Part shown: one piece after another, positions 1,714 to 58,263 of the stretch
Position numbering within the stretch: the first letter of the stretch is position 1
Layout: the number at the start of each line of letters is the position of its first letter
Sequence record: PZ386967.1
Length of the DNA stretch: 64,000 bases
Direction: 5' to 3' (one strand)
Origin: a phage
The notes under the pieces: model-generated
The model's database searches: none
Seen by the model: only the letters and a program-made list of their open reading frames with translations
What the model was told of the DNA's origin: nothing
Program-made: the position numbers and the translations under genes

Positions 1714-2244
1714 ATGAAAATGCGCGGATTTTGTTTTAGTGAAATAGGCAAAGAACTGTCTATACAATATCCCGATCCCAACACAGACTTCTTTATCTTC
1801 CTGACTGATTATGCCAAGAAAGAGAATATCCTCCATGTGGCAATGAAACACGAAGATTATAAGTTCTGTCGGCTGGGTGTCAAAGACCTGCTGCGTTATG
1901 GTCTACAAGTGGTCATTGTAGACCCATACTACAGCCCTATCGACGATGAAGAAGTTCTACCCGTATATGTTCACCGCAACATCAATACATTGGAAAAGCA
2001 TTATCCAGATTGTATTGTCATCGGCGAACTCATCTCGTATTATCATCGTGTGCGAAAGCTGGAACAGATTAAAAGTTATTTTCAAGAGGGTGTTGGTCAA
2101 TATAAGATGAATGCCCTTAGTAGTGGATGGATGGTGCTGTCTTCAGCAGGCAGTGCTGACTATATTAAGATGCGTGTCTACCAATACGTTGTGGAGCGCG
2201 ATTATGAACTGGAGAAAAGTAATGCAAAACGAAAAACCCGTTGA
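1714..2244 (+). CDS. hypothetical protein
   Basis: 176-aa ORF, first gene of a plus-strand run ending at gp32; no recognisable motifs. Confidence 0.4.
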   Translation: MKMRGFCFSEIGKELSIQYPDPNTDFFIFLTDYAKKENILHVAMKHEDYKFCRLGVKDLLRYGLQVVIVDPYYSPIDDEEVLPVYVHRNINTLEKHYPDCIVIGELISYYHRVRKLEQIKSYFQEGVGQYKMNALSSGWMVLSSAGSADYIKMRVYQYVVERDYELEKSNAKRKTR

Positions 2245-2713
2245 ACGTGCTCCGATTGAGGAAGTACAACAACACGTCCTGGACCTTATGAAACACACAG
2301 TTTCTGATGCCGAAGGTAAAGTGCCGGATGAGTTCATCGGTGCGTTCGATCAGGTGGCTTTCGATACAGAGGGAGTTCCTTTGATCCAGACGATCGCTGG
2401 TATGGTTTTGTTTGAACCAAAAGCAGTAGAAAATGGCGTAATCGTCTACTCAGCCAACATCGGTGTGGACGGTGAGTCCCTGTCTCTCGAAGTTAGCAAC
2501 ATTGCTAAGTACCTGATCAAGTGTGGTTATGATCTGCAGGTTGTGACAGCCCACTACATCGATCCTCAGGGACAGATCTCCTACGGTGATGAAGCGCGCA
2601 AAGTGAAACGCCACATCGACACTACCGTGATCCTGCAGAGTATCCAACAGATGCAGAAGAACCTGGACCACCCTGGTCTGATCCTACCTGATAGCAAAAT
2701 CATCACCCGTTAA
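2222..2713 (+). CDS. hypothetical protein
   Basis: ORF track 2111..2713; internal ATG at 2222 (MQNEKPVER...) has GGAGAAAAGT upstream and overlaps the previous stop by 23 nt. Confidence 0.4.
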   Translation: MQNEKPVERAPIEEVQQHVLDLMKHTVSDAEGKVPDEFIGAFDQVAFDTEGVPLIQTIAGMVLFEPKAVENGVIVYSANIGVDGESLSLEVSNIAKYLIKCGYDLQVVTAHYIDPQGQISYGDEARKVKRHIDTTVILQSIQQMQKNLDHPGLILPDSKIITR

Positions 2714-2764
2714 CCCGGCGTAAATAGCCCATACACCAATGAAACTTCGTTATGGGCTATTTAC

Positions 2765-3355
2765 ATGAAATATTGCGGAATCGACTACTCCTATGGCTGT
2801 CCATCCCTGTGCTTCTGGGATGACAAAGACCCTCTTGATTTTGATCATCTGCGCTTCTACGCATATTATACTGTGGAGAAGTACTGCACTCAGATTCGTC
2901 AGAATATCCTTATCATGAAGCAACCGAAGTGGGAGACCCCAGAAGAACGCTTCTATAACATCTGTAAATGGGCTGAGGCTGTCCTGTTGACTGAGAAGCC
3001 GGATGTGATCACTCTTGAAGGGTATGCTATGGGCAACTCTAAGAACTCCAACAACATATGCCAGACCGCAGAGAATACCTCACTGTTGAAGCAAGCCCTG
3101 CGCCGTAACAATTTCGACTTCCAGATCGTGACGCCATCCCATGTGAAGAAGATGTTCACCGACAAGGGCAACGCGGATAAACACGCCATGATCGCTCACT
3201 TCGAGTCGCTGTTCAATGTTAATATGCGCGGTATAATGGATATGTTGGAAGTTAAGGATCCTAAGCCAATCGATGACCTCGTGGATTCGTTTGCGATAAT
3301 GGCTTGTGGCTCTTACTTCATTGAGAATAATCCAGACTTCAACAGAGGTATATGA
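2765..3355 (+). CDS. RuvC-like Holliday junction resolvase (putative)
   Basis: N-terminal CGIDYSYG (catalytic Asp context), ITLEGYA (Glu), C-terminal PIDDLVDSFAIMACG resembling the RuvC D-x-x-D-A motif. Motif-level only. Confidence 0.4.
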   Translation: MKYCGIDYSYGCPSLCFWDDKDPLDFDHLRFYAYYTVEKYCTQIRQNILIMKQPKWETPEERFYNICKWAEAVLLTEKPDVITLEGYAMGNSKNSNNICQTAENTSLLKQALRRNNFDFQIVTPSHVKKMFTDKGNADKHAMIAHFESLFNVNMRGIMDMLEVKDPKPIDDLVDSFAIMACGSYFIENNPDFNRGI

Positions 3356-9390: not shown

Positions 9391-9424
9391 GGGGCTGCTA
9401 TAATAGCAGCTCCTTTTGTTTATT
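9391..9424 (+). terminator. terminator hairpin that also carries a TATAAT in its loop (terminator/promoter unit)
   Basis: GGGGCTGCTAT-AAT-AGCAGCTCC followed by TTTTGTTTATT; TTCAAA box 15 nt upstream of the TATAAT. Confidence 0.5.
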
Positions 9425-9434
9425 GGAGCAGTTT

Positions 9435-10094
9435 ATGTCCTACTCCCTGAAGGGGTTGATGAAGCGCCCCGTCCACACATTCTTTAAACCACCCGTCGTA
9501 AAGGGGATCTACCCAGCACGAGGGCAAATCTACTACGTCAAAGGCTCCAATGGTAGCGGTAAATCCACTGTGCCGTCTCAGCTGGCGGAGAGGGATCCTC
9601 AGGCGTATGTCGTGACCCATAATGGCAAGGTCATGCTGACTGTCTGTCCTTCGTTCAACGTGGTCTGTATCGGTAAATATGACAAGTCGAAGTCCAAGGG
9701 GGTTGATTCCCTGAAGGACACTGAGCAGATGTTGTTCGCGTTGTCTATTGCTGACCAACCAGAATACTTGAAATATGATGTGATTTTCGAAGGTATCATT
9801 CCATCCACATTATTGAGTTCTTGGATCCCCCGTCTGACACGCCCACCACGTGAATTGGTTGTGCTCTTTATGGACACTCCTCTTGAAACGTGTATCACCC
9901 GCGTTAAATCACGTAACGGCGGTGTGGACTTCAATGAAAGTCTGGTGGTCGAGAAGTGGGAGAGAGTTCATGACCATCGTCAACGACATAAAGACTTGTT
10001 CCCTACGGTAGCTGCGGGTATGATGAAGTCTCACGGCCTAACGGTAGACCAGGCTGTGATGGCATTCCTCTGTCGTGATTTTGGGAGTATCTGA
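9435..10094 (+). CDS. P-loop kinase, polynucleotide-kinase (Pnk) kinase-domain-like, no phosphatase domain
   Basis: Walker A GSNGSGKST in a context resembling T4 Pnk N-terminus (remembered GCPGSGKST); ORF track start 9423 is TTG, ATG at 9435 has GGAG SD; stop overlaps next gene start. Confidence 0.5.
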   Translation: MSYSLKGLMKRPVHTFFKPPVVKGIYPARGQIYYVKGSNGSGKSTVPSQLAERDPQAYVVTHNGKVMLTVCPSFNVVCIGKYDKSKSKGVDSLKDTEQMLFALSIADQPEYLKYDVIFEGIIPSTLLSSWIPRLTRPPRELVVLFMDTPLETCITRVKSRNGGVDFNESLVVEKWERVHDHRQRHKDLFPTVAAGMMKSHGLTVDQAVMAFLCRDFGSI

Positions 10095-11140
10095 TGGAAA
10101 TCAAAGCAATTAACAACAATGACATGCTGAAGCAGGCTGTCTTGGCTATCCGTGAATTCGGGATCGAATCTGATCCTGGTAATGCTGAAATCAATACTGA
10201 TAGCACCCGCTTCCTTGATGGTGTGACTATCACTGTTTCCGATATTCGTGACCGCTGGCTCTCCGTTGAAGGTCGCAACTCATCGGCTATCGCTGCCATC
10301 GGCGAGACCTTCTGGGTGTTGTCAGGTCGCAACGACATAAAGTTCCTGTCACGCGTATTGCCTCGCGCTGCTAACTTTTCGGATGATGGGGTAACATGGC
10401 GAGCTGCTTATGGTCCGCGTCTGTACGCCCATGGCCAGCTGGATAGCGTTATCAACCGCCTGCGCAAGAACCCAAACACTCGTCAGGCGTACCTCACCAT
10501 CTATGACCCGGCTCTAGATTCGGATGCTGGTCTGGCGAAGTTCAGCGAGAGCGGCGAAGCAAAGACTAAAGACATGGTGTGTAACCTGGCTCTGTTGTTC
10601 GCCATCGTTGAAGGTCGTCTGAACCTGACGGTCATCAATCGCTCACAGGATGTTCTGTGGGGGATGAGTTCAATCAACTTCATTGAGTTCTCTATTCTTC
10701 AGGAAGTGATTGCTCGGGTGTTAGATGTTGATGTCGGTCAGTACAAGCTCTTCTCCAACAATCTTCATTACTACAACAATGAAGTCAGCCAGAAGCAGCT
10801 GGGAAAGATCACGAAGGACACCAAAGTAGAAGCTGGGTTCATCAACACCATGATTCACTTCACGAACGTGACCAACCAGAACCATATCCGCAATCTGTTC
10901 ACTGGTGTGCTTCATCACTGTGATATCGGTAGCCCGTGGGAAACTGTGGTTGCTCACCTGAAGGAATACGATGCGGATCGCGGCCTGATTGTACAGATGG
11001 CGTACTGTCTGCACTGCAAACTGAACGAAAAGCTCATTAACCTGGACCTGATTCAGGATCATGGCTTGAACACCGCGCTCACCCATTCTCCGGTTGACCG
11101 CAAGATCGTTGATCCTAAGTTCCTGGAAGGTGTAGTATGA
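10094..11140 (+). CDS. thymidylate-synthase-fold pyrimidine hydroxymethylase / TS homolog with about 100-aa C-terminal extension
   Basis: ETFWVLSGRNDIKFL, WRAAYGPRLY, RQAYLTIYDP, catalytic Cys in MVCNLALLF, NRSQDVLWGMSSINF align to conserved ThyA blocks; Asn retained at the base-specificity position (uracil-type). Confidence 0.6.
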   Translation: MEIKAINNNDMLKQAVLAIREFGIESDPGNAEINTDSTRFLDGVTITVSDIRDRWLSVEGRNSSAIAAIGETFWVLSGRNDIKFLSRVLPRAANFSDDGVTWRAAYGPRLYAHGQLDSVINRLRKNPNTRQAYLTIYDPALDSDAGLAKFSESGEAKTKDMVCNLALLFAIVEGRLNLTVINRSQDVLWGMSSINFIEFSILQEVIARVLDVDVGQYKLFSNNLHYYNNEVSQKQLGKITKDTKVEAGFINTMIHFTNVTNQNHIRNLFTGVLHHCDIGSPWETVVAHLKEYDADRGLIVQMAYCLHCKLNEKLINLDLIQDHGLNTALTHSPVDRKIVDPKFLEGVV

Positions 11141-11706
11141 TGTACCCAAATCTTGAATTCTTTACGGGGCGCAAACGCTCCGGTAAGGACTTCTGTTTGG
11201 AGTCCCTCATCAGCTATCACCAACTACAGGGTGATATGGACATCCAGCGCCTTTCGTTCTCAGATGAACTGCGCCGTGTGGCCAACTACATCTACCCATG
11301 GCTGCCAGCGGAGGTAGAGGATGCCGTGAAGGACGTTCCTTACGTGCACCCTGATAACCCCAAGGGCTTAACTCCACGGCAGATCTGGCTTCATCTGGGC
11401 AGCGATACGGGCTTGCGTTACGTACAGCCTGATCTGTTCCTGGCATTCTTCAAGCGCTTCCAGCTTCCTCTGGTAGAGCAGAACCCCCACGTCCATTATA
11501 TCGTGAGTGATCTGCGTACCCCTCAGGAATATGAATGGGCGCTGAGTACGAAATGTCCTATCACCCGTATTTCAAAGGCCGACCGTGCTGGTATCATAGA
11601 GGACGATATAGAGGCTTTCATTGACCAAATGAAAGTGGACTACGAATTCCTCAATCCATTTGATGGTTGGGAACCGTTCGTTAAATTCTACGGAGAACGT
11701 AAATGA
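11137..11706 (+). CDS. 1: deoxynucleoside monophosphate kinase (T4 gp1-like)
   Basis: FTGRKRSGKDF matches remembered gp1 N-terminal SGVKRSGKD P-loop; translationally coupled to flanking genes. Confidence 0.55.
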   Translation: MMYPNLEFFTGRKRSGKDFCLESLISYHQLQGDMDIQRLSFSDELRRVANYIYPWLPAEVEDAVKDVPYVHPDNPKGLTPRQIWLHLGSDTGLRYVQPDLFLAFFKRFQLPLVEQNPHVHYIVSDLRTPQEYEWALSTKCPITRISKADRAGIIEDDIEAFIDQMKVDYEFLNPFDGWEPFVKFYGERK

Positions 11707-12257
11707 TCACAGCAGGACATATCAAAAGCCTGCTCGAACTCCAAAAGGCCACCAACGTGGCCTATTTTGGGGAAGAGTGGAAGAATGTATGGAGTCAGAA
11801 CGCAGTCATCAACTCTATCTATCGTGAGTGGGCAGAGTTCCTTGATGAAACCACCCGTGACTGGAAGGTCTATGGCAACGACATCAGGTTTGACCATACG
11901 AACGCAGTTTATGAACTGGTGGACGTGGTACACTTCATGTTGTGCTTCATCCTTGTGGACCGCACCAAAGGTGAGATCGAAGAAGAATTTGAAGTCCTTA
12001 GCAATCGCGAATTCACCCCATCTGCTTTGGGTGTTGTAGGGCATCGCAATGTTACGTACCGCCTTGGGCAATTCATGAACGATCCTTGCGTTGAGACTCT
12101 CATGTTCTTCCTGTCGTCTGCGTGTTCTTATATGGAGATCGACATTGAGACTTACATGCTGGCACACAAACGCAAGAACGATCGCAATCGTCTGCGTGCT
12201 TCTGGTGGTGTGGATTACGACAAGTCCGCAGAAACCCCTCTGACCCTGGAGTTCTAA
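11703..12257 (+). CDS. 56: all-alpha dNTP pyrophosphohydrolase (T4 gp56 dCTPase/dUTPase-like)
   Basis: EWAEFLDETTRDW and ELVDVVHFMLCFIL resemble the dimeric dUTPase/MazG metal-binding helices. Confidence 0.5.
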   Translation: MITAGHIKSLLELQKATNVAYFGEEWKNVWSQNAVINSIYREWAEFLDETTRDWKVYGNDIRFDHTNAVYELVDVVHFMLCFILVDRTKGEIEEEFEVLSNREFTPSALGVVGHRNVTYRLGQFMNDPCVETLMFFLSSACSYMEIDIETYMLAHKRKNDRNRLRASGGVDYDKSAETPLTLEF

Positions 12258-12799
12258 TGTTTACAGTCGTCGTTTCATACCATGCGGAGAACGCTGCTCA
12301 GGCATCCTCCAAATTCGCCGAGCACATCATCGGCGGCGGCCATAATGTATTCCTTACCGAATACAACAGGCCTGTTAAACCGGGCGACGGTCTTTCGGCG
12401 ACTGTTACGCATAAGATCGCCAGCGAGCAACCAGAGTCTCTGTTCAGAATGATCGAAGAGTATGCCAGTGGTGGCATCAAGATACCAGATGAACTGGTAG
12501 ACGTCTATTTCGAAGGCTCGATCTATTACATCCACGCTATGCCAAAGGATATAACCATTGAACAGATGATGTATATCCTGAATATAGCACTGAACACTGC
12601 GTGCATCAACCGCACGAACTACAACAATCTGCGCAATATGTACCTAACCGACCGGCATAATGACGCATCGTCACTTGTTGAGACAATGTCCCTGAAGAGC
12701 ATCCAAGAGGCGGTTAACATTTTGTCCCAGAAGGTTATGGGTGTAGACTTACTAACGACGATTAACAACAAAGAGGAAGTGAAATGGCCAGTTCATTAA
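12257..12799 (+). CDS. hypothetical protein
   Basis: 180-aa ORF between pyrophosphatase and uvsX; overlaps uvsX start by 16 nt. Confidence 0.4.
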   Translation: MFTVVVSYHAENAAQASSKFAEHIIGGGHNVFLTEYNRPVKPGDGLSATVTHKIASEQPESLFRMIEEYASGGIKIPDELVDVYFEGSIYYIHAMPKDITIEQMMYILNIALNTACINRTNYNNLRNMYLTDRHNDASSLVETMSLKSIQEAVNILSQKVMGVDLLTTINNKEEVKWPVH

Positions 12800-13869
12800 T
12801 GGACCGCATGCTGAAGGTTGCTAAGAAACACGATGACCAGGCTTCAGTGCTGTCCCAATCAGACGCTCTGGAACCGTCTATCATCTGTTCTACTGGTATT
12901 CCCCTGATCGACATCGCATGGTCTGGGCGTATTGACGGCGGTCTGATCTCCGGTATCAAGATGATGGTGGGTGATTCCCGTACCTTCAAAACGATGTTCG
13001 GCCTGGTCGATGTCAAGGCGTACATGGACAAGTTCCCTGATGCTATCTGCGTCTTTGCGGACTCAGAAAAGGGTGCCAACGCAGATTACTGGACCTCTAT
13101 GGATATTGACATGGACCGCGTCCTGTACGTACCGATCGACAACGTTGAACAGACCAAGATCCGCTTGCTACAGATCCTACAGGAAGTCAAGAAAGGCGAC
13201 CATGTTATTGTCTTCATCGACTCTATCAGCCAACTTCCCTCCACCAAGGAAGTTGAAGATGCGATCAAAGGGAACGACACTCAAGACATGACCCGCGCCC
13301 GTGCCCTCAACAGCTTCTGGCGTGTCATGACTCCTGAAATCAACAGCAAAAATCTCGTGTGTGTTTGGATCAACTCCTATTACGATGAGATCGGCAACCA
13401 GTATGCCGAGCCCAACATCAAAGGCGGCAAGCAGGGCTTCTTATCCTCCAACTTGATCTGGTTTATCACCCGTTCTCAGGTGAAGGAAGACAAAGATCTG
13501 CTGGGCTGGAACTTCAACATAAGCATCATGAAAGGTCGCCATGTCAAAGAGAAAGCCAAGCTCCCTGTGACGGTACTGTACAACGGTGGTATTGATCGCT
13601 GGAGCGGCCTGCTTGAGATCGCTCGTGCTCTGGGTTATGTTGATATGCCGTCTTCCGGCTGGTATGTGCGTACAGCCAAGGGTGGTTTCGATCCTGAGAA
13701 GGAAAAGAAATATCAGAAGCGTCAGATGGGTGATGATTTCTGGTATCCGCTGCTGGAGAATGTCAACTTCGCCGATGACGTGAAGAAAATGTTCGGTGTT
13801 TCTAACGGTACTGTTATGCCTGCTAACATGCTGGAGCAAATGGACCATGTTATTAACACAAGCGAATAA
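12784..13869 (+). CDS. uvsX: UvsX recombinase (RecA-like)
   Basis: RecA-fold blocks GIPLIDIAWSG, VIVFIDSISQL; size 361 aa; GAGGAAG SD; positioned before gp41 as in T4. Confidence 0.85.
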   Translation: MASSLMDRMLKVAKKHDDQASVLSQSDALEPSIICSTGIPLIDIAWSGRIDGGLISGIKMMVGDSRTFKTMFGLVDVKAYMDKFPDAICVFADSEKGANADYWTSMDIDMDRVLYVPIDNVEQTKIRLLQILQEVKKGDHVIVFIDSISQLPSTKEVEDAIKGNDTQDMTRARALNSFWRVMTPEINSKNLVCVWINSYYDEIGNQYAEPNIKGGKQGFLSSNLIWFITRSQVKEDKDLLGWNFNISIMKGRHVKEKAKLPVTVLYNGGIDRWSGLLEIARALGYVDMPSSGWYVRTAKGGFDPEKEKKYQKRQMGDDFWYPLLENVNFADDVKKMFGVSNGTVMPANMLEQMDHVINTSE

Positions 13870-14176
13870 TAGTGGAGGGGGAGGAGACTCCCCCAATAAC
13901 TACACAATCATCGACCCTGGTGCTGATCAGCTGGCGATCATCAAGATCACTTCTGGCAAATTCCGTGGTGTTCAATTCCGGTTCGGCAAGGTGGCTATTA
14001 ACGAAGTGGACGGCGAACCCCGCCTGTCTTTCGTGACTGATATATTGAAGAAACCATTGCGTCTGATGTTTGTGAATTTGAAAGAAAATGACTTGTTCAC
14101 TGAGGTATCAGGGGATATCCTTGTAGACCTCATGCAGCGTAATGCTCAGGAATATAATAAATTTTTGGTGGGGTAG
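13847..14176 (+). CDS. hypothetical protein (start uncertain), between uvsX and gp41
   Basis: ORF track 13796..14176 starts at GTG inside uvsX; first ATG in frame is 13847 (GGAG 11 nt upstream), overlapping the uvsX 3' end. A GC hairpin (13876-13897) lies inside the 5' region. Confidence 0.3.
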   Translation: MLLTQANNSGGGGDSPNNYTIIDPGADQLAIIKITSGKFRGVQFRFGKVAINEVDGEPRLSFVTDILKKPLRLMFVNLKENDLFTEVSGDILVDLMQRNAQEYNKFLVG

Positions 14177-14182
14177 TGGCCA

Positions 14183-15607
14183 ATGTTACTCGAATCTGTC
14201 GTGCTTTCACAGTTGATTTACAATGAAGATTACCAAAGAAAGATCCTGCCGTACCTGAAAGCCGATTATTTTGACAACGAAGGCGAAAAGGTCATCTTTG
14301 GCCTGATTGACAGTTATACCTCAGAGTACAATGCCCGCCCGTCTGTCGAAGCACTATCTATCATTCTTGAACGGACAAAGTTGAACGAATATGTGTTTGA
14401 CCAGGCAGTGACTGCCCTGGAGAACATCAACGACAACACCTTCAATGAAGAGTGGCTGGCGAAGGAAACCGAGGCTTGGGCGCGGCAAAAAGCCGTACAC
14501 AACGCAATCAAGACCGCCGTCAACATCTACGGTGACGAGAAGCGCAAGGACGAGATGAACAACATCCCGACCATGTTGCAGGAAGCCCTGGCTATCCGGT
14601 TTGATTCATACCTCGGTCACATCTATTGGGAGATGGCGGCAGAGCAGTATGACCACATGAACTCCAACGAGGCCAAGATCCCGTTCGCAGTTGAGATCTT
14701 CAATAAGGCGACACGTGGTGGCGTTGGTAAGAAGACACTGAACATCGTAACAGGTGCGATCAACGCAGGTAAGACCACAACGCTGATTGACCTGACCGCA
14801 GGGTACTCGGAGCAGGGGCTGAACGTCTTTGTCTTCACCCTTGAAGTGGCCGAGAACGTCTGGCGACACCGTCTTGATGCCCGTATCATGCGTCGCGACT
14901 TTGAGTCTTTAGAGAAACTCACAAGGCACGAGTATATTGCAACGATAGAGAAGCTCCGCAGTCGCCAAGATGGTGCGCCCAAGGGTGATATCGTCATCAA
15001 GGAATATCCTTCTGGTACTGGACACACGGGTTTATTCCGCCGCGATATCCTTGAGTACATCCAGGCAACAGGTCGTGCTCCTGATGTTATCGTTATTGAC
15101 TATCTTGGCGAAGCTGCTTCCTCGCGCCTGCCTTCCCACCTGATGCAGAACACGAACGTCTATTACACGTCTGTGGCTCGTGAGTTTCGTGCGCTGGGAT
15201 TTGAGTTTGATGTCCCTGTATGGACTGGTATGCAGTTCAATCGTGAGAATCAGAATAGCACTGATGGTGGAATCAGTGATCTGGCAGATGCTATCGGTAT
15301 TCCGAAGGTGGCCGACTTCATCATGGCATTCTATGCTCCTGACGAACTGGCGGCGGTCAAGAAAGCCCGAGCCTCAATACTCAAGAACCGTTATGCCAAC
15401 AAGCAGAAGCTGAAGTCATTCCTGTTTGGTATGGACCAAGACAAACAGATCCTGTTTGACCTGGACTGGAACGAAGTTAAGAAGGATCTGACTGAGGCTG
15501 AGGCCAAATATGTCGAAAACGTACACATCAAACATGACCTCAACAAGTCCGGGGCTGCTGCCAGCGATGAGCAGAAAGCCCAAACAGTCAATAATTGGAA
15601 ATTCTAG
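14183..15607 (+). CDS. 41: replicative DNA helicase (T4 gp41, DnaB-like)
   Basis: Walker A GAINAGKTT, DnaB-like C-terminal RecA fold, 474 aa. Confidence 0.85.
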   Translation: MLLESVVLSQLIYNEDYQRKILPYLKADYFDNEGEKVIFGLIDSYTSEYNARPSVEALSIILERTKLNEYVFDQAVTALENINDNTFNEEWLAKETEAWARQKAVHNAIKTAVNIYGDEKRKDEMNNIPTMLQEALAIRFDSYLGHIYWEMAAEQYDHMNSNEAKIPFAVEIFNKATRGGVGKKTLNIVTGAINAGKTTTLIDLTAGYSEQGLNVFVFTLEVAENVWRHRLDARIMRRDFESLEKLTRHEYIATIEKLRSRQDGAPKGDIVIKEYPSGTGHTGLFRRDILEYIQATGRAPDVIVIDYLGEAASSRLPSHLMQNTNVYYTSVAREFRALGFEFDVPVWTGMQFNRENQNSTDGGISDLADAIGIPKVADFIMAFYAPDELAAVKKARASILKNRYANKQKLKSFLFGMDQDKQILFDLDWNEVKKDLTEAEAKYVENVHIKHDLNKSGAAASDEQKAQTVNNWKF

Positions 15608-18572: not shown

Positions 18573-19181
18573 ATGTCACTGAAAAACTTACTGAAACGCA
18601 TCTTCACCACTGTTGAAGCTAACGTCACCGCAGGTCTGGATAAACTGACCGACACCGAAAAGCGCCTGAACCTGGCTGCTCGCAAGCTGTCTGACGAAAT
18701 CCGTCGCCTGGAGGAAGCCCGTGTCACCAACGTCCGCAACGGCGTCAAGCTGAAGAAGACCGCAGAACAGAACCTAAGTGAAGCCGCCAAGCGCGAAGAA
18801 GTTCTGAAGGACGCCATCGCTCGTGGTGTCACACCAACCCGCGCCGACGCCCTGATTATTCTGCATCGCCGCCGTATCGGTGAAGCCCTGTTGGCTCAGG
18901 TGAAGGACATCGAAGCAAGCAGCGACAAACTGAACGGTGCGATCATCCAGCTGGGTGACAAACTGGACGAAGTCAAGTCCAATCTCGAGCTGGTTCGTGT
19001 TCAGAAAGAGACGAACGACCTGGGTCTGGTGCTCCCTGAAGATATCGATTATGCCGCTGGTATGACCACCATCGATATCGATGCCATCCTGCGCGAAACC
19101 GAAATCGCTGATTCGAGCTACTCCGCCAACAGCCCGTCGTCTATCGAAGCCGACAACTACCTCGCCAGCCTGAGCAAATAA
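18573..19181 (+). CDS. PspA/IM30-like coiled-coil protein (putative)
   Basis: N-terminal RIFTTVEANVTAGLDKLTDTEKRLNLAARKLSDEI resembles remembered PspA N-terminus ([23 protein letters not shown]...); about 200 aa, heptad-rich. Confidence 0.35.
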   Translation: MSLKNLLKRIFTTVEANVTAGLDKLTDTEKRLNLAARKLSDEIRRLEEARVTNVRNGVKLKKTAEQNLSEAAKREEVLKDAIARGVTPTRADALIILHRRRIGEALLAQVKDIEASSDKLNGAIIQLGDKLDEVKSNLELVRVQKETNDLGLVLPEDIDYAAGMTTIDIDAILRETEIADSSYSANSPSSIEADNYLASLSK

Positions 19182-19195
19182 CATCAGAGGGGCTT

Positions 19196-19756
19196 ATGCC
19201 CCTCTATCACTTCGGGGATCTTATGAACATTATTGATTCTTTCAACATACTCACTGGTGCTACTGCTTTCGTTCTTTTGTGTATTGGCAGTGCCTGGCTG
19301 AGAGGTCGACTGAAGAAACGGGAAGTCTTGAAGCGAGACCGTATTGACATCCACAAAATAATGCTGGATAGAACTTGCAAACATGGCCCCAGCGGTGACT
19401 TCCGTTTGTATTATTTGTCGGATGAAGTCACCCCTTCGGAATTCTTCAATTATGCGATGGCTGGGTTGCGATGGCCGGAGATAAACGGCGTTGTTCAGAA
19501 AACTGATTACGTGTACGTGAATATGGCTTCCCTGAACAAGCACGGGGAACGCGACGATCTGCGGATGTGGTTCTTTGGAGGAGAGGAACAAGAAGAGTTT
19601 GTAAAAGAACTTGCTCTCTTGCTTAACACGTACGAAAAGGCTGGTTGCCCACCACTCGAGGTGGAAGAATCAGTAGAATCTATCGTGGCTCGCGCTCGTG
19701 GTGAAACCGTGGATCTACTGAACAAATACGGCTTTGTCTGGGCGGAGGGTTCATGA
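19196..19756 (+). CDS. membrane-anchored protein (hypothetical)
   Basis: N-terminal TM helix (LTGATAFVLLCIGSAWL); follows the PspA-like gene. Confidence 0.4.
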   Translation: MPLYHFGDLMNIIDSFNILTGATAFVLLCIGSAWLRGRLKKREVLKRDRIDIHKIMLDRTCKHGPSGDFRLYYLSDEVTPSEFFNYAMAGLRWPEINGVVQKTDYVYVNMASLNKHGERDDLRMWFFGGEEQEEFVKELALLLNTYEKAGCPPLEVEESVESIVARARGETVDLLNKYGFVWAEGS

Positions 19757-22000: not shown

Positions 22001-22653
22001 CAGAGTGGCAGAAGATGGAGTTCGAGCGGGCGTTCAACGTTTACTGTGTCTTCATGGCGATCAAGCTGCACTTCACCACTAAGGACTTCGATTACAGCTT
22101 GTATGGGCCGATGAATTACAAGTTCGAGACGTTCTTGGCGAAGGAGGCCGTGTGCAAACAGTTTGCTCGCCTTGCCCGTCGGTTCGAGTCATCACAGGGT
22201 GAAGTGGTAGAGAACTACATCATTGCCAACTTCATCAAATCACCCAAGACCTGGGTGACGACATTGCTTACACGCCAGGCTCAGGCCAATTATGATGAAT
22301 ACCGTAAGCTGTACGAGAACTTCACATATAACTTCCTTGAGGAGTTCGAGCGGGAGATGATCCCTGCCATAAGGGAGCGCAACTGCACCTTCATTGAGTA
22401 CATCAAGGGGACGGGTACAGGCCATCCACCGTTGCTGACAGACATCATCATCAAGAAGTTCCCGATTTGGTTCCTTGTCGGTCTGAACAAGATCGTTGGT
22501 TTCATTCATCTATACGATACGATTCTGCGTGATGACATCTATTGGAACTCGGAGGCGTTCTTGCTCAGGAAGACGAATGCTGTGGTTCCGGATGAGGATA
22601 CCACATATTCAAAACAGAGACTCCGTGAGCTAATACAAGCCCACGGAATTTGA
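21994..22653 (+). CDS. hypothetical protein
   Basis: 219-aa ORF, convergent with the structural block. Confidence 0.45.
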   Translation: MLTEWQKMEFERAFNVYCVFMAIKLHFTTKDFDYSLYGPMNYKFETFLAKEAVCKQFARLARRFESSQGEVVENYIIANFIKSPKTWVTTLLTRQAQANYDEYRKLYENFTYNFLEEFEREMIPAIRERNCTFIEYIKGTGTGHPPLLTDIIIKKFPIWFLVGLNKIVGFIHLYDTILRDDIYWNSEAFLLRKTNAVVPDEDTTYSKQRLRELIQAHGI

Positions 22654-30943: not shown

Positions 30944-31353
30944 TCTAAAATCGGTACGTTCACAAACCCTTTATGCCAGCGATGGGGTTTATGGCCTCTG
31001 TTGTGTTCGAGCAAACACGTATCCGGTGGGACACTGAAGTGGATGCCTTCGATGTCGTAGTAATGCCCATCAATCAGAGTATACACATGACCTTCGGTCT
31101 GACTGTAATGGATCTCTGCTTGGGGATACACGTGCTTCAGAAGTAGAGCAACCTGGTAACACTTCCCGTTCTTCCCCACGTACTCGACATCCACCTGTTG
31201 TGGAAACACATCTTTGATAAGGTTTATCAATCTCGTGATGTCATTTACGACAACCGAACGTTTCATATCACCTCTCCCGAGGATTCGTTGGTGAACCAAT
31301 GATACTCTATCCCGGATATAGAAAAGCCCCTCACGGGGCTTGATCGTCTTCAT
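30925..31353 (-). CDS. hypothetical protein
   Basis: 142-aa ORF. Confidence 0.35.
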
Positions 31354-31633
31354 CAGGGAATATACGCCATCGACCTATTCCATACCACTCACCGATAGAG
31401 TTCCATGTCCTTTCCCCAGGCCAGCCGCCGACCGAGTAGTAATGCGTCACCAGCCGCCAGTAAGGAAGAGAGGCCGTGTTCACGCCGCCGTCGGCCTTTA
31501 GGCAGGCCAAGTACCAATTCGTGAGACTGAACGCCTGAAATAACGGATGAAGGAACATGAAGTACAGGTAGCCCAATATGGCTGTGAATACCCCAGCTGT
31601 TACGATCACACCGATGACAGTGAATACAATCAT
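31331..31633 (-). CDS. small membrane protein (hypothetical)
   Basis: Hydrophobic N-terminal helices. Confidence 0.3.
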   Translation of the reverse strand: MIVFTVIGVIVTAGVFTAILGYLYFMFLHPLFQAFSLTNWYLACLKADGGVNTASLPYWRLVTHYYSVGGWPGERTWNSIGEWYGIGRWRIFPDEDDQAP

Positions 31634-58235: not shown

Positions 58236-58263
58236 AAGGGGAGGAAACTCCCCTTTCTTTTGG
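58236..58263 (+). terminator. rho-independent terminator
   Basis: AAGGGGAG-GAAA-CTCCCCTT followed by TCTTTT. Confidence 0.6.

Follow-up and report, generated by a model that had tools for sequence, protein, structure and literature searches.

A 64,000-nucleotide stretch of phage DNA (PZ386967.1), referred to here as the window, carries a GC-rich hairpin directly past the stop codon of the recombinase gene uvsX and within the reading frame of a small gene that separates uvsX from a gp41-type replicative helicase gene. Comparison of this junction among related phages argues that the hairpin is a genuine element of the sense-strand mRNA, conserved and under selection at the RNA level, and that the small open reading frame (ORF) is, as judged from its sequence, an ordinary overlapping gene with a conventional start codon upstream of the hairpin. 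Phage T4 has a known feature of which this hairpin is the counterpart in the Ackermannviridae, and by analogy with that system the most likely function of the hairpin is that of an intra-operon element which forms or stabilizes an RNA 3′ end and so sets the ratio of uvsX to helicase. We assign this reading a probability of roughly 60%. A role in RNA 3′-end formation or stability was not considered in a preliminary description of the locus, but is the best supported of the roles that were weighed.

13877 to 13894, + strand: mRNA hairpin with 5′ arm GGGGGAG (13877-13883), GNRA loop GAGA (13884-13887) and 3′ arm CTCCCCC (13888-13894)

The hairpin consists of a perfect GC stem of 7 base pairs (bp) that begins 7 nucleotides (nt) past the uvsX stop codon TAA. 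It was the dominant local fold in RNAfold, with a free energy of −16.1 kcal/mol for the element alone, and GGAGG motifs were found in the 5′ arm and just before it. The preliminary description was accurate in both respects, having reported a stable hairpin with an embedded GGAGG immediately after the stop codon. Perfect GC-rich stems of ≥7 bp are four-fold overrepresented in the window (19, compared to 4.6 ± 2.0 in dinucleotide shuffles). As stems of this type are common here, a single such hairpin is suggestive but not conclusive, and family-wide conservation with covariation was taken as the decisive evidence that the structure is real.

The junction was compared in 32 distinct sequences from GenBank phages, IMG/VR and metagenome assemblies, the comparison that had been proposed in the preliminary description. 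The stem was present in every clade, with sequences that differed between clades: GGGGGAG/CTCCCCC, GGGGAGGG/CCCTCCCC, GGTGGGA/TCCCACC, GGCGGGA/TCCCGTC, GGGGGGC/GCCTCCC and GGGGCGGC/GCCTCCC. Among the 21 distinct hairpin variants, 89% of cells were occupied by standard pairs compared to 54-70% when partners were slid. Four pairs had changed on both sides, and the observed covariation score was reached in none of 500 shuffles. In two Vibrio phages the compensation was doubly synonymous, Gly GGT plus Pro CCA in the one corresponding to GGC plus CCG in the other. G·U pairs occurred on the sense strand only and most loops conformed to GNRA on that strand, the loops observed being GAGA, GCAA, GTGA, GTAA, GAAA, GAAG, TCAC, TTGC and GTAAAA. 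The encoded peptide also was recoded 2000 times with synonymous codons at the codon usage of the window itself. None of these recodings was as stable as the observed hairpin, and the equivalent fraction was <0.04 in 23 of 24 lineages. The stem employs rare codons (GGG 14%, GGA 9%, CCC 9%). In the most distant homologue of the small gene, which comes from a metagenomic phage of low GC content, the overlap is ATGA, and both the hairpin and the peptide motif G-G-x-x-S/L-P are lacking. Thus, the small protein does not require the hairpin.

Analysis of the region surrounding the junction with RNAalifold (22-junction alignment) recovered the GC hairpin alone, with no second conserved structure at the ATG. 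Covariance-model searches against Rfam gave chance-level hits only (E ≥2.5), none of which was located on the hairpin. The exact 18-mer of the hairpin occurred once per Ackermannviridae genome in IMG/VR, and in phiMAM1, which represents another genus, the stem was not found to recur within the first 50 kilobases. Two DNA-level interpretations of the sequence were rejected. A palindrome or protein-binding site in the DNA is at odds with the variation in both stem and loop, with G·T pairs that appear on one strand only and with GNRA loops that are read on the sense strand. A promoter match at 13841-13870 scored 9/12, which was no better than shuffles, and its −10 element was not conserved in Ag3.

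12784 to 13869, + strand: uvsX, RecA-like recombinase of 361 amino acids, stop codon TAA at 13867-13869 (from the ORF list)
13847 to 14176, + strand: small ORF of 109 amino acids, PHROG 3998 (no assigned function), positional analogue of T4 gene 40
13847 to 13849, + strand: ATG start codon of the small ORF, giving a 23-nt overlap with uvsX; the annotated start in relatives
13833 to 13836, + strand: Shine-Dalgarno sequence GGAG of the small ORF, within uvsX codons for Leu-Glu, 10 nt before the ATG

The frame of the small ORF is +1 relative to uvsX and is open from 13784 to 14176. As noted in the preliminary description, it continues through the hairpin and its nearest ATG is at 13847 in the 3′ end of uvsX; the in-frame candidates are GTG 13796 and ATG 13847, followed past the hairpin only by GTG 13991 and ATG 14066. 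The accompanying claim that the ORF lacks a clean start did not hold, as ATG 13847 appears to be both a normal start and the only plausible one. Pairing of GGAG 13833-13836 with the anti-Shine-Dalgarno sequence was calculated at −5.6 kcal/mol compared to −5.9 to −6.6 kcal/mol for neighboring genes. GGAG or GGA is kept at this position in all enteric-clade variants, and a ribosome-binding site is annotated there in the Magnus record. The equivalent ATG is the annotated start in Ag3, LIMEstone1, CBA120, Magnus and vB_CECAV_050. More broadly, all 32 junctions possess an in-frame ATG upstream of the hairpin and a frame that is open through it. The distance from ATG to stem is 30-68 nt across all clades; enteric-clade junctions have 30 nt, with a uvsX overlap of 23 nt. 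One lineage (L033) has lost the usual ATG and has an ATG one codon upstream in its place. The start codon is maintained despite changes in the overlapping UvsX residues, which vary between His, Asn and Asp at the first position and between Val and Ala at the next: the UvsX codon that supplies the 'AT' is always NAT, although NAT codons account for 31-50% of usage for these residues. The N-terminal peptide predicted from ATG 13847 is MLLTQANNSGGGGDSPNNYTIIDPGADQLAIIK.

Other modes of initiation were rejected. The codon GTG 13796 has a weak Shine-Dalgarno sequence (−1.0 kcal/mol) and is missing in CBA120. A non-AUG start, which the preliminary description had considered, or any start past the hairpin is disfavored as there is no ATG, GTG or TTG between the stem and 13991, and no conserved near-cognate start-like codon or Shine-Dalgarno sequence was found past the stem across the 32 junctions. 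A hairpin that sequesters the ribosome-binding site would require a start codon 5-12 nt past the sequestered Shine-Dalgarno-like sequence and none is present. The footprint of the ribosome at initiation does not reach 30 nt past the ATG. The stem begins at or beyond that distance, so it should be unable to mask initiation, and the proposal that the structure controls initiation was not sustained. The suggestion of translational coupling or re-initiation fared better in part: the small ORF begins within the 3′ end of uvsX, which makes coupling to uvsX translation plausible from the sequence, but ATG 13847 also has its own normal Shine-Dalgarno sequence. The coat and lysis genes of MS2 provide an example of re-initiation in coupled overlapping genes. 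As in coupled gene pairs (Tian and Salis, 2015; PMC4538824), the downstream start and Shine-Dalgarno sequence are located family-wide in the 3′ end of the upstream gene and in a different frame, although the common ATGA or TAATG type of overlap is shorter than that found here (d = −23). The usual unmasking of the downstream start by upstream translation is impossible at this junction because the conserved structure is downstream of the start and not over the ribosome-binding site.

The uvsX hairpin is one of a class of hairpins that in this genome follow stop codons. Hairpins of ≤−14 kcal/mol were present within 40 nt past the stop codon at 13 of 74 gene ends compared to 1.1% of coding 40-mers, which represents a 15-fold enrichment in the window. 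The uvsX hairpin was the second strongest of the class and the sole member situated within the reading frame of the next gene. Certain members are canonical terminators with U-runs (46251, 58236, 59155 and 16355), whereas others are located between co-directional genes and have no U-run (19186, 34434 and 33373). Genes for topoisomerase II and a histone-like protein are among those that precede such hairpins. The pattern GGGGAG-N4-CTCCCC occurs three times in the window (13878, 39079 and 58238) compared to zero expected; the other two copies also are found past stop codons, one of them with a U-run. GNRA or UUCG loops are present on the sense strand at 697, 34434, 39076 and 58236.

Two further hairpins in the window are associated with the starts of the following genes. 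That at 19186-19205 (+ strand), AGAGGGGC-TTAT-GCCCCTCT, is 4 nt past the stop codon of ORF 18573-19181. Its loop contains the ATG at 19196, the first of the following ORF, and a further in-frame ATG (19223) is preceded by a GGGG Shine-Dalgarno sequence, so that either may be the start. The hairpin at 31324-31341 (− strand), AAGCCCC-GTGA-GGGGCTT, contains the TGA stop codon of ORF 31331-31633 (− strand) in its loop. The first possible start of the next ORF overlaps this gene by 23 nt, but a strong Shine-Dalgarno sequence with an ATG is located ~55 nt downstream.

The organization of the junction resembles that of the uvsX-40-41 region of T4. In that phage uvsX is followed by gene 40 (114 amino acids, 8-nt overlap), a 9-nt gap and gene 41. 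Codons 16-22 of gene 40 form an 8-bp hairpin, UCCCCCUC-UUCG-GAGGGGGA with a C(UUCG)G loop, that is located at T4 positions 22329-22348, 37 nt past the uvsX stop codon and 45 nt past the gene 40 ATG; the 358 nt that precede gene 41 contain no other compact stable stem-loop. Corresponding hairpins that carry compensatory changes were found in the gene 40 leaders of Mosigvirus, Karamvirus, Jiaodavirus, Gaprivervirus and Dhakavirus, and compared stem arms among T4-like phages were UCCCCCUC/GAGGGGGA, UCCCCUUC/GAAGGGGA and UCUCCCUC/GAGGGAGA. In relatives from Shewanella and Aeromonas and in Yersinia phage JC221 the hairpin is intergenic and terminator-like, sometimes with a U-run, and gene 40 starts past it. 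The two systems share the gene order of recombinase, a protein of ~110 amino acids and a helicase within a few nucleotides; the overlap of the small-gene ATG with the end of uvsX; and a GC-rich tetraloop hairpin of 7-8 bp, kept by compensatory change, in a non-conserved leader of the small gene 30-60 nt past its ATG. In both, protein conservation starts just past the stem: homology among gp40 proteins begins only after the residues that are encoded by the hairpin, as in the Ackermannviridae. The differences are that the T4 arms are C-rich first with a UUCG loop, compared to the opposite arm order and a GNRA loop here; that the T4 stem is 30-50 nt past the uvsX stop codon rather than 7 nt; and that an RNA 3′ end has been mapped in T4 only.

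According to Kim et al. (2025; PMC12152347), who cite Hinton (1989; J Biol Chem 264:14432 and 14440), an RNA 3′ end observed in vivo directly follows a stem-loop within the 358 nt that precede T4 gene 41. They further state that in rho mutants more RNA ends at this site, which lowers 41 mRNA, and that GoF(D25Y) restores 41 mRNA by stabilizing RNA that contains the uvsX-40-41 region (PMC12152347). Whether the T4 end reflects termination or stalling of an exonuclease was still undecided in a further account (PMC2988021). Like the hairpin studied here, C(UUCG)G hairpins of T4 mRNA (Hall, 2015; PMC4371310) consist of a short GC stem of high stability that ends in a tetraloop of the GNRA or UNCG type, are placed after a cistron within a polycistronic unit and do not need a U-tract. 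The window contains many hairpins of this type. The placement of the uvsX hairpin within the frame of the next gene sets it apart from these T4 elements, which are located in intercistronic spacers. The stabilizer hairpins of bacterial operons, such as the malEFG REP and puf elements, likewise are intercistronic. Tuerk and colleagues reportedly described stable C(UUCG)G tetraloop hairpins in T4 mRNA in 1988.

14183 to 15607, + strand: gp41-type replicative helicase, starting 6 nt past the stop codon of the small ORF; DnaB_C domain (Pfam DnaB_C in homologues)

A mechanism that accommodates these observations is as follows. The small ORF would initiate at ATG 13847 by means of GGAG 13833-13836 and would be translated through the hairpin, which would mark the 3′ boundary of the uvsX cistron within a tightly packed operon. 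The hairpin would create or protect an RNA 3′ end just downstream, either as a barrier to 3′-to-5′ exonucleases after cleavage or through weak or conditional termination. As a consequence the uvsX message would be more abundant or longer-lived than the helicase message, and the small ORF and gp41 would be reached only by read-through RNA on which translation from the upstream ATG is maintained. Translation of gp41 would follow by close coupling to the small ORF. The demand for UvsX is stoichiometric and that for the helicase catalytic, and a conserved RNA element between the two genes would be a simple means of fixing their ratio. At this junction both phage families have a hairpin under selection within the translated leader of a small gene, the two small genes being unrelated, and this lends comparative support to the T4 RNA end. 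Moreover, the natural hairpin variants could be used to separate termination, processing and translation-dependent protection.

Several points weigh against this assignment. The sequence directly 3′ of the stem, AAUAACUA, has no U-tract (defined as ≥5 U in 8 nt), a U-run also is absent in other Ackermannviridae lineages, and a terminator scan of the window did not list the uvsX hairpin as terminator-like. Canonical intrinsic termination at the hairpin therefore is unlikely. The element resembles an intrinsic terminator in being a GC-rich hairpin past a stop codon, with a stem core GGGGAG/CTCCCC identical to that of the canonical terminator at 58236-58255, but it differs in the missing U-tract and in having essential downstream genes in the same unit. 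We infer that the stem-loop of Kim et al. (PMC12152347) is the CUUCGG hairpin as it is the sole compact stable stem-loop in that interval. Moreover, no homology was detected between the small ORF and T4 gp40, with hhalign probabilities of 0.1% for gp40 and 0.3% for a gp40 profile. As the small proteins are not detectably homologous, the T4 analogy is positional, and on sequence grounds the parallel is architectural, being either convergent or too old to trace. A literature search found no RNA-end or transcript data for Ackermannviridae phages. Finally, the hairpin is 0-11 nt from the start of the conserved protein domain in all clades compared to 7-40 nt from the uvsX stop codon, and this proximity could indicate a role in connection with the downstream ORF and not with uvsX.

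A more elaborate scheme, which we put forward only as a tentative possibility, is that hairpin and translated leader together form a translation-gated attenuator that is common to the two phage families. Ribosomes from the overlap ATG that follow the polymerase or cover the RNA would prevent stem formation and the message would reach the helicase gene. If ribosomes were absent, the stem would form and the RNA would end or be trimmed at that point. Such an attenuator, if correct, would explain why in both Straboviridae and Ackermannviridae, whether by independent events or in an ancient one, the start codon has been moved to a position 5′ of the stem, and would be relevant to a long-standing question in T4, the rho(nusD)/goF puzzle concerning the control of gene 41 mRNA levels.

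The main competitor of a 3′-end or stability role is that the hairpin acts principally on translation and fixes the stoichiometry of UvsX, small protein and helicase, which we regard as unlikely. The stem might be a roadblock past the uvsX stop codon that favors backward re-initiation at ATG 13847, or a pause site that throttles the flow of ribosomes to the small ORF and, by way of the 6-nt junction, also to gp41. The distance from stop codon to stem is 7-8 nt in 17/17 enteric-clade variants despite variable spacer sequence, so that a ribosome in the act of terminating on uvsX would have the stem at its mRNA entrance. This geometry is not universal, however, as the Vibrio clades have spacings of 14-40 nt and overlaps of −2 to 41 nt. 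Similarly, although re-initiation at d = −23 is weak in unstructured synthetic operons (Tian and Salis, 2015; PMC4538824), which leaves room for an enhancer, the small ORF has a ribosome-binding site of normal strength at its disposal. The hairpin always is in the translated leader at ≥30 nt from the ATG, and the junction between small ORF and gp41 is tight in all relatives (2-7 nt), both of which suit a translational function. Against this, 7-bp stems are readily unwound by elongating ribosomes, and the equivalents in some T4-like phages that are intergenic with a U-run better fit a role at an RNA end.

The hairpin also might be the operator for an RNA-binding regulator, whether for autoregulation by UvsX, the small protein or the helicase, or for a GoF- or LSm-like factor. 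A conserved stem in an operon of replication genes, the existence of hairpin operators in T4 such as that of gene 43 (PMC3014915) and the stabilization of uvsX-40-41 RNA by GoF(D25Y) (PMC12152347) all are compatible with this proposal. We nevertheless consider it improbable, as stem and loop sequences vary freely, which argues against sequence-specific recognition, the stem does not cover the ribosome-binding site and there is no Rfam match. Still less probable is that the structure is a by-product of selection on the motif G-G-x-x-S/L-P or otherwise is functionless as RNA. Gly12 and Pro16 are invariant in the protein alignment, and Gly and Pro codons are naturally complementary. However, synonymous recoding almost never yielded comparable stability and the codons employed include rare ones; the stem is in a different register relative to the codons in different clades; doubly synonymous compensations occur; residues 1-16 are predicted to be disordered; and the distant homologue lacks motif and hairpin alike. 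Recoding or an unconventional start, in which UvsX and the small protein would be fused by +1 frameshifting or gene 60-type bypass or the ORF would start at a non-AUG codon past the hairpin, is very improbable indeed. A stop codon followed by a tetraloop hairpin is superficially like the T4 gene 60 gap, and the small ORF is in the +1 frame. Yet matched take-off and landing codons exist in only 7 of 32 junctions and at inconsistent places, and the stem begins 7 nt past the stop codon although a bypass of this type would have its take-off codon in the stem; no conserved slippery heptamer, expected 5-9 nt before a stimulatory structure, is present in the overlap in the 22-junction alignment; the SD25 and L037 clades have no overlap (TAATG); no fused homologues were found among 36 clusters; and the region past the stem offers neither Shine-Dalgarno sequence nor conserved start-like codon.

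13847 to 13900, + strand: N-terminal leader of the small ORF, 18 codons, non-conserved and carrying the hairpin (from alignments, tblastn and the predicted local distance difference test, pLDDT)

The region of the window under study shows 98.8% DNA identity to Agtrevirus phages of the Ackermannviridae, for example Salmonella phage vB_CECAV_050 and Shigella phage Ag3. The recombinase gene was identified as uvsX from the annotation of this 98.8% identical DNA in Agtrevirus phages and from homologues with Pfam domains RecA_N and T4_UVSX_C. The genes uvsX, small ORF and gp41 all are on the + strand and are the last, in the 3′ direction, of a series of genes (9423-15607) that abut or overlap one another. 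Family-wide homology of the small protein begins at Tyr19 (13901), directly past the stem, both in alignments and in tblastn matches that start from residue 19. The AlphaFold2 model consists of four strands and a long C-terminal helix, with residues 1-16 disordered (pLDDT <50). In BFVD the predicted fold matched only uncharacterized phage proteins, and the core had no Pfam family and no fold match in the PDB. The family of the core (13901-14173), PHROG 3998, is essentially restricted to the Ackermannviridae, with 36 clusters in 5.8 billion proteins.

The comparison also has value for annotation as it confirms the 13847-type start and reveals a small ORF that is missing from one record. In Serratia phage phiMAM1 (JX878496) the small ORF is intact at 1441-1776, complete with ATG and hairpin, but is absent from the GenBank annotation, in which 1464-1853 is left empty and the gp41 start is set at 1854, later than in relatives. 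In Vibrio phage 1.244.A (MG592609) the gp41 homologue at 1788-3285 is at least 805 amino acids in length. Its LAGLIDADG_3 domain suggests that an intein or a homing endonuclease has been inserted in the helicase gene. The match of Salmonella phage pSal-SNUABM-02 (MT857002) to the region is broken in two by an inserted gene that is annotated as a putative HNH endonuclease. In Vibrio phage 207E48.1 (1-1460) the gene 5′ of the small ORF is annotated as two ORFs, one ending at 901 and the other at 909-1460, instead of a single uvsX, and the recombinase gene of this phage may be split or divergent.

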